DNA of 64,000 nucleotides from Bacillota bacterium (GTDB taxonomy: Bacteria; Bacillota; Syntrophomonadia; Syntrophomonadales; Syntrophomonadaceae): assembly GCA_023395515.1 (NCBI GenBank), contig JAEWZB010000121.1:4365-68364 (forward strand), written 5' to 3'. The translations under genes were made by a program, and so were the position numbers. Numbering within the stretch: position 1 is the stretch's first letter; each line of letters begins with the position of its first letter. The notes beneath the pieces are model-generated. The model did not search any database and was not told where the DNA came from. It saw nothing but the letters and a program-made list of their open reading frames with translations. Positions 27,935 to 64,000 of the stretch are shown piece by piece.

Positions 27935-27957
27935 AGCGAATTTAACTAAATTCGCTT
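27934..27957 (+). other. perfect 10-bp hairpin without a U-tract (copy 1 of a duplicated terminator-like stem)
   Basis: AAGCGAATTT - aact - AAATTCGCTT starts in the stop codon of the preceding gene and is followed by CAGAGCG, not by T's. Confidence 0.7.
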
Positions 27958-28081
27958 CAGAGCGTCAAAAAAGCCCAATAGCTGCGTTGTTAAGGTCAGC
28001 CCGTTCAATCGACGTACCTATGTACGCCTCAATCACGGTCTTCCCTTAACGCCTTGCTCTTGAACTTTTTTGCTCGCTCTG
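27958..28081. repeat. ~124-nt GC-rich long imperfect palindrome (candidate MITE or structured RNA)
   Basis: Pairings: CAGAGCG/CGCTCTG, CAAAAAAG/CTTTTTTG, GCGTT/AACGC, CCGT/ACGG, and an apical CGTAC-ctat-GTACG. An internal loop carries TCAATC on both arms. GC is ~50% against AT-rich flanks. Confidence 0.65.
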
Positions 28082-28108
28082 AAAATGCATACTTTTTCAA
28101 TAATCTCC

Positions 28109-28136
28109 AGCGAATTTACTTTAATTCGCTTTTTTT
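28109..28136 (+). terminator. intrinsic terminator (copy 2 of the duplicated stem) ending the fla/che transcription unit
   Basis: AGCGAATT - tacttt - AATTCGCT followed by TTTTTT. The stem is nearly identical to 27934-27957. Confidence 0.75.
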
Positions 28137-28191
28137 ACGTCTTTTGGGGCACAATAATTGATAATACTAAAGGATTCAAAAGCTTAGAATC

Positions 28192-28221
28192 TTGCAAAAC
28201 GTATAGCCGTTATGGTATATT
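28192..28221 (+). promoter_or_regulatory. candidate sigma-A promoter of rpsB-tsf
   Basis: TTGCAA, an 18-nt spacer, then extended -10 TGgTATATT. It lies ~110 nt upstream of the rpsB ATG. Confidence 0.5.
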
Positions 28222-28330
28222 AATTTTTGGTAATTACACACGCTAAGGTGACATTATAAATAGTGCTGAGTATCAGTTTTTATAATGGATGAAGCTAGCG
28301 GAGGAATAAAACTAAAGGAGGTATATAATT

Positions 28331-31959: not shown

Positions 31960-32745
31960 ATGTTAAAAGAAAGAATTATTAGTACAATAGTAGGTGTACC
32001 CTTAATAGTAGCTATCCTATATACCGGGGGAGTATATTGGATAGTGTTTTTTGCTTTACTAGGTCTAGGGGGACTTTATGAATTTAATAAAATGATTAGC
32101 AAAGAATATCAACCCATGTGGGTTTTCAGTATTTTATTAATGTTAATTATAATGTTTCATAGCTATAATGATTTATTAATTCCATCCTTAGTTCTTTTTA
32201 TGTTTATAATAGTTATATACTTAGTAATAAAGTTTCCGCAAACTACTATAATCGACATGGCTCTCAGCTTATTGCCTGCATTATATTTAGGCTTTTCTTT
32301 AAGTTTTGCCATACTGCTCAATAATCAACCTCATGCTTTTCTAATCATGCTAGTTTTGTTTTTATTTACTTGGAGTAGTGATGTAGGCGGCTATGTTTTT
32401 GGGAGGTTATGGGGAAAACATAAATTAGCCCCTCTCTTAAGTCCCAATAAAACTTGGGAAGGTTCTATGGGAGGCATAGTTTTAACTATTATTGCCGCAG
32501 TACTTCTTTTTAATGGGGCTGGACTGGGCCATCAAAATATAGTTAGTATAATTATTCTAGGTATTTTATCAAGTATTGCTGCGCAATTAGGAGATTTATT
32601 TATGTCGGGAGTAAAACGGATATTTTCCATAAAGGATTCCGGTAATTTAATTCCCGGGCATGGTGGAATTTTGGACCGGTTTGATAGTTTTCTATTGGTT
32701 TTACCTATTGTATACTGTTGTATTTATTATGGTAAAATCTTATAA
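31960..32745 (+). CDS. cdsA: phosphatidate cytidylyltransferase
   Basis: 261 aa polytopic protein with the CTP-transferase signature SGVKRIFSIKDSGNLIPGHGGILDRFDS. Confidence 0.9.
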   Translation: MLKERIISTIVGVPLIVAILYTGGVYWIVFFALLGLGGLYEFNKMISKEYQPMWVFSILLMLIIMFHSYNDLLIPSLVLFMFIIVIYLVIKFPQTTIIDMALSLLPALYLGFSLSFAILLNNQPHAFLIMLVLFLFTWSSDVGGYVFGRLWGKHKLAPLLSPNKTWEGSMGGIVLTIIAAVLLFNGAGLGHQNIVSIIILGILSSIAAQLGDLFMSGVKRIFSIKDSGNLIPGHGGILDRFDSFLLVLPIVYCCIYYGKIL

Positions 32746-32811
32746 AGAAGAATTGGCTGGTTTTAAATAATTATTAATTCTTATTCTGCTGCAAAAAGTT
32801 ATTATTCGTTA

Positions 32812-33066
32812 GTTGAATGTATAAATATTCCGTCACCAGACTTCGCATGGGGAAACACCAACTGCTTGTCTCAAGAATAAAGGGGTACCGGGCCAAAATC
32901 ACATCCTTAATGGTGAACGATAGTGAACATCGGGAGTGCCCGTGAGTACATCCTGTTCAGTGGCCCGCTCACCTCGTCCATGAGGTTCGCCCCCTTTCTT
33001 CTTGAGCCTTCGCAGGGTGTATCCGCCATGCTGCGTCAACGGCTCCTACATATTTATACATTCAAC
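32812..33066 (+). repeat. interspersed ~255-nt GC-rich structured element, copy A (candidate ncRNA or non-autonomous mobile element)
   Basis: A perfect 17-bp closing inverted repeat GTTGAATGTATAAATAT (32812-28) / ATATTTATACATTCAAC (33050-66). Nested helices: GCATGG/CCATGC, ACACC/GGTGT, CTGC/GCAG, a 15-of-16-bp CTCAAGAAtAAAGGGG/CCCCTTTcTTCTTGAG, CGGGCCA/TGGCCCG, CGGG-agtg-CCCG and ACCTC-gtccat-GAGGT. A 65-nt 5' interior stretch counted by hand is ~55% GC. The 5' ~65 nt are ~85-90% identical to 63932-64000. Confidence 0.75.
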
Positions 33067-33100
33067 ATGATAAATTAAGGTTAATTTAAAATTAAAACTG

Positions 33101-34231
33101 ATGGGTGAGGATAATATGGATCCTGAATTAACTAGATATTTAAAAACTTTAACTAAACTGGCCATCTTGGTTATGGCGTTAGTGGCTATTTATTTGTTGT
33201 TTACTTATGTTTTTCCCATAGCCGGTAAAATGCTGTCATATTTACCGTCACTGCTGATGCCCTTTATAATTGCGGTTCTTTTGGCCATTATAATTGAACC
33301 GGTAGTAGTATTTTTTGAAACTAAAGCTAGATTAAAAAGAAGTTGGTCGGTTGCGCTTAGTTTAACCTTAGTAGTAGGTGGTTTTATATATTTAGTTTCA
33401 TTATTAATTGCTAAGATAATGCAAGAAATTTCCGGTATGACTCCTCAGTTAATAAAGTATTCTGATGGAGTAGTACAAAAGATAATAGCGGCAGTCAGTG
33501 ATTTTAGAGTGCTTTATTTGAAATTAAACTTACCGATTGAAGTGCAAAATGCTATCCAGGATAATTTGCAAAATTCCATAACGGTAATACGTCAATTCAT
33601 GGAAAGCAGTGTTAACTCTCTAGCCAAGTTATTAACCGTATTACCCGATATGTTTGTAGTTATTATGATTGCTACCGTAGCCACCTTTTTTATCATTAAA
33701 GACCGGGCGTTACTTAAAATTTTCTTTTTACAGCTTATACCGGGCAATGCCAGATCTAAAACTAGAGATGTTACCACTGAGCTTTTTAAATCCTTTATCG
33801 GTTTTCTGAAAGCCTATAGTATTTTAATTACCATAACTGCAATAGTTACTATGATTGGCCTTAAAATCCTGGGGGCTAAGTATATACTGACTATCGGTAT
33901 TGTAGTGGGCCTTTTGGATATTTTACCTATTTTGGGTCCGGGAACCTTTTTTATTCCGTGGATCATCTGGGAATTTATTTCCGGTAACACCGGCTTCGGA
34001 ATTAGTTTAGTAGTTTTATATGGAATCATCTCAGTAGTAAGGCAATTTTTAGAACCGAAAATAATTGGAGATAATATAGGCTTACACCCTTTGGCCACCT
34101 TGTTTTCTTTATATGTGGGGTTAAGGCTGGGAGGAATTGTGGGCATGATTTTAGGTCCCGTCTTAATTGTTATTATCATGGCCAGCTACCGGGTAGGTAT
34201 TTTTGATGGTATCAACTGGAGGAAGCGTTAA
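33101..34231 (+). CDS. ytvI: AI-2E/PerM family membrane protein, YtvI-like (sporulation integral membrane protein)
   Basis: 376 aa polytopic protein. The C-terminal conserved block is ILPILGPGTFFIPWIIW...PKIIGDNIGLHPLATLFSLYVGLRLGGIVGMILGPV. ATG 33116 (MDPELT...) behind GGTGAGGA is the more likely start. Confidence 0.7.
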   Translation: MGEDNMDPELTRYLKTLTKLAILVMALVAIYLLFTYVFPIAGKMLSYLPSLLMPFIIAVLLAIIIEPVVVFFETKARLKRSWSVALSLTLVVGGFIYLVSLLIAKIMQEISGMTPQLIKYSDGVVQKIIAAVSDFRVLYLKLNLPIEVQNAIQDNLQNSITVIRQFMESSVNSLAKLLTVLPDMFVVIMIATVATFFIIKDRALLKIFFLQLIPGNARSKTRDVTTELFKSFIGFLKAYSILITITAIVTMIGLKILGAKYILTIGIVVGLLDILPILGPGTFFIPWIIWEFISGNTGFGISLVVLYGIISVVRQFLEPKIIGDNIGLHPLATLFSLYVGLRLGGIVGMILGPVLIVIIMASYRVGIFDGINWRKR

Positions 34232-51740: not shown

Positions 51741-51969
51741 AGTTTACTTTTTAACGAGGCTATGCTAAAATTACCTTGGTTCTAATGGGATTTTATGAGA
51801 ATATTATGAAAGTTTTAAAGCAAAGAGCGGCCAGGTCTTTGATCTAGTTGTTAAATATATAAGGTAGACTGATTATAAAGTGGTCTGCCCCGGAACCGTC
51901 AGCTAGGGTTAGCGAAGTCACCGACGCTTTTCTTGGTTAGCGGCGATTAATAGTGAGGAGGTGAAATAA

Positions 51970-52239
51970 ATGGCCTTAAGTCAAGAAAGAAAGCAAGAAC
52001 TTATCAAGGGTTTCCAAATTCATGAAAATGATACCGGTTCCCCGGAAGTTCAAATAGCCATTCTTACGGAAAGAATTAATTATCTGAATGAACATCTTAA
52101 GCTTAATAAAAAAGATCATCATTCACGCCGAGGTTTACTTAAGATGGTTGGTCAAAGAAGAGCTTTATTAGATTATCTTAAAGATAATGATTTCGAAAGA
52201 TATAGAAGTATCGTTACCAGATTAGGTTTACGAAGATAA
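51970..52239 (+). CDS. rpsO: 30S ribosomal protein S15
   Basis: 89 aa with [33 protein letters not shown]. Confidence 0.97.
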
Positions 52240-52268
52240 AGAGCGGATACTGCCGCTCTTTAATTTTA
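52239..52268 (+). terminator. hairpin/terminator between rpsO and pnp
   Basis: AAGAGCGG - atactg - CCGCTCTT followed by the T-rich TAATTTTAT. Confidence 0.65.
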
Positions 52269-52307
52269 TCCTTAATCCATAATATTAGAAAGGAGGACAT
52301 CTAATCA

Positions 52308-59017: not shown

Positions 59018-59028
59018 GGGGGATTAAC

Positions 59029-59298
59029 ATAAAGCTTAATGAGCTGATAGGTAAGGAAATGGTTAATATTTATGATGGCATGCGGATGGGAACGGTAGGG
59101 GAATCAGATATGTTAATTGATGAACAGAGTGGTCAAATTATTTCCATTATTCTTCCCAACCGGGGCAATGCCTTTAACTTTTGGGCTGACCGGCAAAAGC
59201 TGGTTATTCCCTGGGAGGCAGTTAAGAAAATAGGACGGGAAGTAATCGTGGTAGATATTGATAATACTCATATGCGGCTTAAAAATCATTCTTATTGA
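59029..59298 (+). CDS. ymxH: YlmC/YmxH family PRC-barrel sporulation protein
   Basis: The ORF-track ATG is at 59059. The in-frame upstream codons ATA AAG CTT AAT GAG CTG ATA GGT AAG GAA encode (I/M)KLNELIGKE, the conserved family N-terminus. See findings for the non-canonical start argument. Confidence 0.8.
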   Translation: MKLNELIGKEMVNIYDGMRMGTVGESDMLIDEQSGQIISIILPNRGNAFNFWADRQKLVIPWEAVKKIGREVIVVDIDNTHMRLKNHSY

Positions 59299-59318
59299 TA
59301 CATAGGAGGGATTAGAGT

Positions 59319-59498
59319 ATGGATAAAACTAAAGCATGGGATTATGCTCTAGGACTAATTAAAGTGGATGGTTTAGAGCCTTCTAAGGATTTTTTGGAGC
59401 TAGTGGAGAAAGAAAAAAAAGGCGAAATTACAACAGACGACATGAGAAAATATTTAAACGAAAAATATAAAATTAAAGAAGATAAAAACCATGATTGA
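59319..59498 (+). CDS. VbhA-like (class I Fic) antitoxin, degenerate inhibitory motif
   Basis: 59-aa ORF below the ORF-track cutoff: MDKTKAWDYALGLIKVDGLEPSKDFLELVEKEKKGEITTDDMRKYLNEKYKIKEDKNHD. SD AGGAGGG lies 8 nt upstream. The stop overlaps the Fic ATG (ATGATTGA). ALGLIKVDGLEPS aligns with VbhA ALASQRLEGLEPD. Confidence 0.6.
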   Translation: MDKTKAWDYALGLIKVDGLEPSKDFLELVEKEKKGEITTDDMRKYLNEKYKIKEDKNHD

Positions 59499-59751
59499 CC
59501 CATATTTATATCCTGGTACTGACATACTTATAAATAAACAAGGCATAAAAGATGAAAAAAAACTGAATGAAATGGAAGCAAATTTTGTAGCTATTAGACT
59601 TAGAGAATTAGTTGAAAAGCCGCTTCCAGGAAATTATGATACTTTAGTGGCAGCCTCAGCTATTTTTTCAGATTTAGGAGATTTGTCTAAACCCGAATAT
59701 TTAATAAATATTATCCAAGATGCAATGGAAAAAGATACTGAACAAAGATAG
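59491..59751 (+). pseudogene. Fic/DOC family protein remnant (internal deletion removing the HxFx[DE]GNGRxxR core)
   Basis: 86 aa. The N-terminus DPYLYPGTDILINKQGIKDEKKLNEMEANFVAIRLRELVEKPLPGNYD is typical Fic. It then runs directly into a C-terminal-like tail, and no Fic motif is present. Confidence 0.6.
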
Positions 59752-59756
59752 AAGAT

Positions 59757-59785
59757 AAAAAAAGGCCAAGTGCCTCTTTTTTTTT
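59757..59785. terminator. weak bidirectional terminator between the convergent Fic remnant and PHP gene
   Basis: AAAAAAAGGC - caagt - GCCTcTTTTTTTTT: an A-tract and T-tract flank a short GC stem. Confidence 0.45.
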
Positions 59786-59818
59786 GCCCTTTAACCTTTA
59801 AACAATTTAAAGCCTATT

Positions 59819-63898: not shown

Positions 63899-63931
63899 GA
63901 TAGTATGTAGTATATGATTATATTGCACTAG

Positions 63932-64000
63932 TTTGAATACATAAATATTTCGTCGCCAGACTTCACATGGGAAACACCATCCGCTTGGTTTTGTGGGGAA
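63932..64000 (+). repeat. interspersed structured element, copy B (5' part only, truncated by window end)
   Basis: TTGAATacATAAATATTtCGTCgCCAGACTTCaCATGGG-AAACACCAtcCGCTTG aligns with copy A positions 32813-32868 with a few substitutions and a 1-nt indel. It has the same orientation and starts 34 nt after a gene stop. Confidence 0.7.

Follow-up and report, generated by a model that had tools for sequence, protein, structure and literature searches.

The element between cdsA and the transporter gene

The stretch of DNA analysed here, 64,000 nt from a bacterium of the Syntrophomonadaceae (contig JAEWZB010000121.1; "the window" means this whole stretch), carries between cdsA and a ytvI-like gene for an AI-2E family transporter a GC-rich, non-coding element that we call copy A; a second copy, copy B, is cut by the end of the window (Table 1). 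This setting had been recognised in a reading made from the letters alone, referred to below as the sequence-only reading, and was confirmed by the protein families of the two neighbours. The start of the transporter gene was called at 33116 in locus L010.

Most of what the sequence-only reading said about the build of copy A stood up to analysis. The inverted repeat that closes the segment is indeed a perfect 17 bp, the short motifs ACATC and GTGAAC are present three and two times, respectively, and the interior is GC-rich (54.8%, and 49.8% over the whole 255 nt, compared with 38.0% in the 64-kb window). The minimum free energy (MFE) structure predicted for 32812-33066 is the rod-plus-multiloop fold described, an interrupted rod with a branched apex, and has a z-score of about -8.5, with 0 of 200 shuffles equal to it on either strand (+ strand, -102.6 kcal/mol and z = -8.36; - strand, -113.9 kcal/mol and z = -8.59). 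Folding the same element with DNA parameters agreed with the RNA result (z = -7.6). Since the fold is about equally good on both strands, it indicates by itself neither an RNA nor a strand; the proposal that high GC is the mark of a structured RNA is therefore weak, given the equality of the strands and strand evidence that, as discussed below, conflicts. The extent needed revision. The segment of ~255 nt is real, but the repeat unit in fact spans about 32782-33087, with ~30 nt more on the left (from 32782) and ~20 nt more on the right (to ~33087); the element measures ~300 nt in the window (family range 270-320 nt) and ~270 nt in related genomes.

The second copy had been said to begin at 63932. 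Judging from the alignment, 63932-63987 is 86% identical to copy A with one 1-nt indel (nhmmer match 63919-63988), and a different assembly of this genome contains copy B in full (L042:1140-1460). It has a perfect 18-bp inner repeat, and on the - strand both of its AYGGAY hexaloops, a feature taken up below, are intact (AUGGAC and AUGGAU).

Table 1. Positions in the window of copy A and its parts, of the flanking genes and of copy B
Feature	Position	Strand	Remarks
cdsA (phosphatidate cytidylyltransferase)	31960..32745	+	upstream of copy A; Pfam CTP_transf_1
Left outer arm	32782..32811	+	aligns with the left arm of copies in related metagenome-assembled genomes, GATTCCACTGCAAAAAGGTATAATTCGCAGG
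Terminal-inverted-repeat homologue TATTCTGCTGCAAAAAG	32782-32798		within the left outer arm of copy A
-10-like hexamer TATTAT	32800-32805		where the left arm is unpaired; inner repeat follows 6-7 nt downstream
Inner inverted repeat, 5' half (GTTGAATGTATAAATAT)	32812..32828	strand-neutral	closes the rod; perfect 17 bp
TwoAYGGAY-equivalent span (GACGCAGCAUGG ... CCAUGCGAAGUCU)	32838..33038	-	mapped by homology to L002:3829-3985(-)
Hairpin ACCTC-GTCCAT-GAGGT	32971..32986	-	hexaloop AUGGAC (32976-32981) fits AYGGAY
Inner inverted repeat, 3' half (ATATTTATACATTCAAC)	33050..33066	strand-neutral	perfect 17-bp partner
Right outer arm remnant	33067..33087	+	nhmmer match stops at 33087, model position 260/268
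AI-2E family transporter gene (ytvI-like)	33116..34231	+	downstream of copy A; Pfam PF01594, E = 2e-51
Copy B, cut by the window end	63899..64000	+	inner inverted repeat starts at 63931

A few further observations concern the surroundings. The unpaired -10-like hexamer of the left arm is conserved, reading TATAAT, TATTAT, AATAAT, TATACT or AATACT across lineages; as an internal promoter it was rejected, having neither a -35 partner nor a TG extension. The largest stretches of the window without open reading frames (ORFs) of at least 110 codons are 51741-52307 (567 nt, before the PNPase gene), 59018-59818 (801 nt, containing small called genes) and 27935-28330 (396 nt, before rpsB). Past the window, ~4.6 kb from its end, the contig that holds copy B carries a c-di-AMP riboswitch (ydaO/yuaA leader, RF00379; 96 bits, L042:5775-5901); its neighbours are an MgtC-family gene on one side and a radical-SAM/LAM_C (lysine 2,3-aminomutase-like) gene on the other.

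Relatives, outer repeats and empty sites

The search for relatives used a 20-mer taken from the conserved 5' block, run against a collection in which each species has a single representative genome. The window genome is absent from this collection; ENA and Logan assemblies contain it, and the source names of its nearest CdsA relatives assign it to the Syntrophomonadaceae, class Clostridia. The scan returned nine loci in three metagenome-assembled genomes (MAGs) of Syntrophomonadaceae/Syntrophomonadales, all with homologues of the element. In all, ~12 copies from four lineages were sampled; the element is thus, as had been proposed, one of a repeat family and not a gene-specific leader. The MAG copies reach ~30 nt past the inner 17-bp repeat at either side and end in 16-bp terminal inverted repeats (GATTCCACTGCAAAAA / TTTTTGCAGTGGAATC), which are present in L001, L003a, L005, L006 and L007 and, in a co-varying version, in L009. 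In the genome with the most copies sampled, full copies with these ends lie in AT-rich spacers between genes and have fresh duplications. Among the seven copies with intact ends, five are flanked by exact target-site duplications of 6-8 bp (6, 6, 6, 7 and 8), the duplicated sequences being AT-rich (AATAATAG, AATCTT, ATATTCT, ATAGAT and AAGAAG); the other two copies, which are older, have imperfect duplications. When the left flank of one copy was matched with the right flank of another as a control, 0 of 42 combinations reached 5 bp. Empty sites were found as well: in three related genomes (loci L035, L036 and L038) the spacer between cdsA and the AI-2E transporter gene lacks the element and has lengths of 4-62 nt (39, 62 and 4), compared with 370 nt in the window, in a gene row that is otherwise collinear and with CdsA proteins 69-75% identical to that of the window. 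The target-site duplications together with the empty sites show that the element is, or was, mobile. It behaves as a mobile insertion resembling a MITE (a miniature transposable element with inverted repeats), and copy A has inserted into the short spacer that separates cdsA from the AI-2E transporter gene in a conserved row of genes.

The sequence-only reading had offered a MITE as its alternative, with the 17-bp repeat as the terminal repeat. Mobility holds, but the 17-bp repeat was rejected as a transposon end: no direct repeats stand beside it, homology runs on outside it, and it is an inner stem, the true ends being the outer 16-bp pair. At the right end of copy A the expected terminal inverted repeat (...TTTTTGCAGCAGAATA) is not recognisable, the arm is only 33-36% identical to the right arms of the MAG copies, and 6 of 12 outer pairs are formed. 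With its right end lost, copy A is probably immobile now.

The check for copies, duplications and a partner, also suggested earlier, had a divided outcome, since copies and duplications were found but an autonomous transposase partner was not. Outer-repeat-like sites sought in the related loci were only more fragments of the family, and the ORFs beside the L009 site encode FtsH-like, CDP-alcohol phosphatidyltransferase and radical-SAM proteins, none of them a transposase. A DDE-type transposase supplied in trans presumably moved the element by binding the outer repeats, and the element would spread, or once have spread, as a non-coding MITE-like interspersed repeat in the Syntrophomonadaceae. 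A BLAST search with the element against plasmid and phage collections gave no match, a metagenome scan with the core 20-mer gave a single chance match in GC-rich DNA, and viral-contig scans with the core 16-mer, a 3' 19-mer and the outer repeat gave chance matches only.

In three independent metagenome assemblies a contig breaks off within the conserved 5' block of either copy A or copy B (the ends of L011, which corresponds to window position 32829, of L041 and of L043), as a repeat would lead one to expect; the repeat thus fragments assemblies of this organism. Truncated and internally deleted derivatives of the element also exist. Further fragments of the family lie at L001:7213-7278, L009:1594-1635 and L003:300-448; two are remnants of the 5' arm, of a CCCCTGC(A/G)AAAAGT subtype, and the third has an internal deletion that joins the left arm straight to the AUGGAC hairpin. 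A separate hairpin element of 80 nt (CCTGGATTCC...GGAATCCAGG) sits inside the left stem of the L005 copy (L005:2276-2355), flanked by a 6-bp duplication (GCCTGT/GCTTGT). L004 retains the left end of this hairpin element, followed by a deletion, and the ends of the hairpin element have GGATTCC in common with the terminal repeat of the main element.

Compensatory change and the relation to TwoAYGGAY

Covariation was assessed with RNAalifold on an alignment of seven full copies from four lineages, which gave 90 predicted pairs with 94.4% of cells paired. Twenty of these pairs are changed on both sides. Column shuffles gave 5.8 +/- 1.9, with 0 of 500 reaching the observed count, and controls in which the partner was slid by 1-3 columns had only 1-4 double-changed pairs; between the compensatory and the random substitutions that the sequence-only reading had set against each other, the count falls on the compensatory side. 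Copies A and B by themselves are separated by nine compensatory double substitutions in the rod. Two of the nine fall in the closing stem (17/18 bp), in which neither copy has a mismatch (AATACAT/ATGTATT versus AATGTAT/ATACATT between the two copies) and which is also compensated in L002, and the ACCTC/GAGGT hairpin is likewise kept by compensation (a CG pair has become UA in two copies, and a GC pair AU in one). The long rod and the two apical hairpins are maintained by compensatory substitutions.

The rod and the arms outside it have fared differently. Between copies A and B the outer arms, which no longer pair, diverge by 51% compared with 18-22% for the rod, in which 62 of 68 pairs are formed in copy A and 67 of 68 in copy B (91-99%); in L002 the left end has also been lost and the rod kept. 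Since the rod is intact in copies with decayed outer arms, this suggests that it is constrained independently of transposition, and it may be under selection of its own. The copies might also stem from different master elements.

The sequence-only reading could match the element to no known RNA, a claim that did not survive. Although no RNA family reaches its Rfam gathering score anywhere in the 64-kb window, the homologous copy L002 does: L002:3829-3985(-) matches TwoAYGGAY (RF01731) with 48.8 bits, which exceeds the gathering score (43 bits), and the match covers the whole model (positions 1-168; E = 3e-5 in 29 kb, 3.6e-7 locally). Three more copies match at full length below the gathering score (L003a, 27.7 bits; L006, 27.5 bits; L009, 27.0 bits), and all four matches are on one strand, opposite to the orientation that the element shares with its flanking genes. 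The Rfam check thus returned nothing for the window itself and a known family for its relative, so that the identification of a known RNA, which the earlier reading had named as telling against it, came indirectly, because the match belongs to the homologous L002. That L002 is homologous to copy A follows from BLAST (E = 1e-10 to 3e-12) and from nhmmer, and the RF01731 membership of the window copies rests on homology to copies that do match. The ACCTC-GTCCAT-GAGGT hairpin corresponds in the alignment to the first RF01731 AYGGAY hairpin as found in L006 and L002. Apical loops on the - strand read AUGGAC and AUGGAU, with ACGGAU, ACGGAC and AUGGAC in other copies, all of them fitting the AYGGAY consensus after which the family is named; both loops are present in the MAG copies, the Y positions vary between U and C in L001, L008 and L009, and the GGA core is conserved in nearly all copies. 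None of the exact strings of the element was matched in the published TwoAYGGAY alignment.

A lineage-specific 46-nt insert occupies the apex of copy A (32907..32952), bounded by direct repeats of ACATCC (32901-32906; 32948-32953). On the - strand this insert divides the second AYGGAY loop into AAGGAU and CAGGAU, and no MAG copy has it. A module of ~42 nt (TTARTGGTGARCGAYAGYGAAYATCGGGAGTG...) is common to copy A (32907-32947) and copy B (L042:1289-1335) and occurs nowhere else in the window; it lies within the second hairpin in A and between both hairpins in B. Copies A and B miss the RF01731 model because each has this extra module of ~45 nt. By homology, the core of the element appears to be a divergent variant of TwoAYGGAY, the window copies themselves failing the curated score. 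We are not dealing with a new RNA class; the element is a variant of a known orphan motif on a mobile repeat.

Readings weighed and comparison with known systems

Given these results, we put at about 70% the probability that the element is the conserved core of a mobile repeat, that is, a MITE-like carrier of a TwoAYGGAY-class fold whose rod is under a real constraint. Several observations weigh against it. A recognisable pair of outer repeats is lacking in both copies of the window genome and no duplication is definable for either, so that mobility in this genome is deduced from the empty sites and from what other genomes show. A search of the window and of ~190 kb of related loci brought up no autonomous element whose ends match. 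Copies A and B have no match to RF01731 even at E <= 10, and copy A has one canonical AYGGAY loop (AUGGAC) only. Furthermore, the copies within one MAG are near-identical in a sample of this size (~12 copies, four lineages), and the covariation therefore rests on few independent events. Where it stands, copy A looks like any ordinary insertion between genes; an effect on cdsA or on the transporter gene is not demonstrated.

The strand evidence conflicts, in that the MFE favours the - strand and the wobble pairs and gene co-orientation the + strand, and different functions would follow from each. The - strand, which folds better by 5-17 kcal/mol in six of seven copies, is the Rfam strand and bears the AYGGAY loops, with their GGA core in nearly all copies. 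It could encode a stand-alone TwoAYGGAY small RNA (sRNA) with its own promoter, titrating dimeric CsrA or a similar protein in trans, the MITE arms being only the means by which the gene spreads. Such a role would fit a published proposal that the GGA loops of TwoAYGGAY bind CsrA (PMC4333381), as well as the intact rod of copies with decayed outer arms. A promoter-like site, TTGCCA-18-TAAAAT (10/12), lies just right of copy B (L042:1454-1483, -), upstream of the element on the TwoAYGGAY strand and aimed into it; it overlaps the start of the downstream DUF1015 gene, and its equivalent is absent at copy A and at the MAG copies. Indeed, no promoter-like or terminator-like site is common to the copies on either strand, and the wobble pairs point to the other strand. 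The two or three GGA sites per element also contrast with known Csr/Rsm sponges, which have many more. Finally, the established CsrA antagonist of Firmicutes is a protein, FliW (PMC8523840). We therefore regard an sRNA of this kind as unlikely.

On the + strand, G-U pairs outnumber A-C mismatches (28 versus 13 cells, 15 versus 9 sites), 11 of 12 copies share the sense of both co-directional flanking genes, to which the Rfam strand is antisense, and copies often lie within 10-30 nt of the stop codon of the gene before them and not far from the start of the next. The element might then act in cis within + strand operon transcripts, its long hairpin being co-transcribed between cdsA and the transporter gene and altering the processing or stability of the mRNA, for example as an RNase III substrate, a role described for other bacterial MITEs. 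The MITE-like bcr repeats commonly form part of untranslated regions (UTRs) and of spacers within operons, and for bcr3 there is a correlation with decay rate (PMC3446304). Nearly all genes in the window are on the + strand, however, and the orientation bias may reflect either selection at the transcript level or a bias of gene strand or replication; the neighbours are unrelated genes with no apparent common regulatory logic, and the loop hexamers have no known meaning on the + strand. A cis function is accordingly doubtful in our view. Selection might also be dispensed with altogether, the element being a decaying, neutral MITE whose structure is a residue of its palindromic origin. Equal folding of both strands, the degraded outer ends of both window copies and of L002, the lineage-specific apical insertions and the truncated derivatives would all be expected of such a remnant, which we nevertheless hold to be highly improbable: the compensatory double changes are far above both controls, nine of them separate A from B while pairing stays at 91-99%, the rod is much better conserved in sequence than the arms, and the loop hexamers are conserved, varying at the Y positions only. 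A gene for a small protein is effectively refuted; the sequence-only reading, too, had argued against a peptide. ORFs of 40-51 codons do occur on both strands, among them the 42- or 51-codon frame within the element that could be proposed, but the copies have no reading frame or start codon in common, indels shift the frames, and six-frame peptides of the element have no relative among 5.8 billion proteins.

Regardless of function, the reading of a MITE-like carrier bears on a motif that has been in Rfam since 2010 as an orphan with a previously unexplained multi-copy distribution. This locus and its relatives offer a concrete mechanism for that distribution, in that the motif is carried by a mobile element with terminal inverted repeats and target-site duplications, or is itself such an element. 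Divergent members that have apical insertions go undetected by the Rfam model, so that the family probably extends beyond its present annotation, and these members also break metagenome assemblies. Selection on the fold independent of the transposon ends is suggested, and the strand used and the binder of the hexaloops become directly testable questions. A bolder and quite improbable extension would make TwoAYGGAY the cargo of a MITE that copies itself around genomes of Clostridia, its rod and two GGA hexaloops kept because the RNA binds a dimeric regulator, with CsrA as the published guess. There are two or three GGA loops per element, ~27 nt apart, a spacing that a protein dimer could in principle bridge. 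A motif search for a CsrA gene in the window and related loci found none, which is uninformative. If this extension were true, such elements would be protein decoys able to spread themselves, and the first antagonists of CsrA in Firmicutes to be made of RNA, and the movable ~45-nt module, which adds a GGA site in copy A, would be a way in which the number of binding sites changes.

Among known mobile systems, derivatives of IS200/IS605 (PATE, omega-RNA/HEARO) were ruled out by the terminal inverted repeats and target-site duplications, and the window and the related loci scanned have no Rfam match to the HEARO or IS605-orfB RNA families. The outer repeat is closer to the IS6/IS26 consensus GGTTCTGTTGCAAA (PMC6807381), which the left end in the window, TATTCTGCTGCAAA, matches at 11 of 14 positions and the MAG end, GATTCCACTGCAAA, at 10 of 14. 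Its atypical tips also recall the clostridial "long" IS6-like members, whose ends lack an initial GG and seldom have complementary outermost bases, and MITEs with ends of this family have been named (MITEBth2, MITEHarch3). The tip is GA or TA instead of GG, however, G7 is found in the window copy only and not in the MAG copies, the duplications are 6-8 bp versus a fixed 8 bp (PMC7986276), and no IS6-type transposase was found near the copies. As the tip bases and the duplication length do not fit, an IS6/IS26 origin is a lead and not an assignment.

In general plan the element resembles bacterial MITEs, which are typically <400 bp, with terminal inverted repeats, target-site duplications and long stem-loops (PMC3184786). 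With bcr1-3 of Bacillus cereus, ERIC, Correia and RUP it shares a length below 400 bp, the lack of coding capacity, terminal repeats with short duplications, sites that are intergenic and within operons, and a long stem-loop with compensation (PMC3184786, PMC3446304), compensatory changes preserving structure in bcr1 as they do here (PMC3184786). It differs from them in having no sequence similarity (no Rfam or BLAST match), a core that is better conserved than the ends and holds two conserved hexaloops, and no parent insertion sequence found. Its possible likeness to Csr/Rsm sponge RNAs, an idea that goes back to PMC4333381, would lie in the placing and spacing of GGA in hairpin loops; unlike those RNAs it has only two or three such sites and no promoter or terminator of its own was found, and it is multi-copy and mobile, not a single regulated gene.

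From TwoAYGGAY as described, the element differs in a closing stem lengthened by more helices and by the 17-18 bp AT-rich stem outside the Rfam model, in the scores of the window-genome copies, which fall below any reportable level, in the ~45-nt module and the split second loop of copy A, and in its MITE-type outer repeats and duplications, a link absent from those parts of the motif literature covered here. PMC2864571 and its supplement describe the closing stem of TwoAYGGAY as "often very large", P1 being often about 24 bp, and count Clostridiales among its hosts, and the published seed alignment contains several copies from one genome. The element has, in copy B and in the MAG copies, the same two apical AYGGAY hairpins, and throughout the family a very long closing stem, a host among the Clostridia and multiple copies per genome, together with a conserved purine-rich internal loop (GCA/GAA) beside the GCAUGG/CCAUGC helix.

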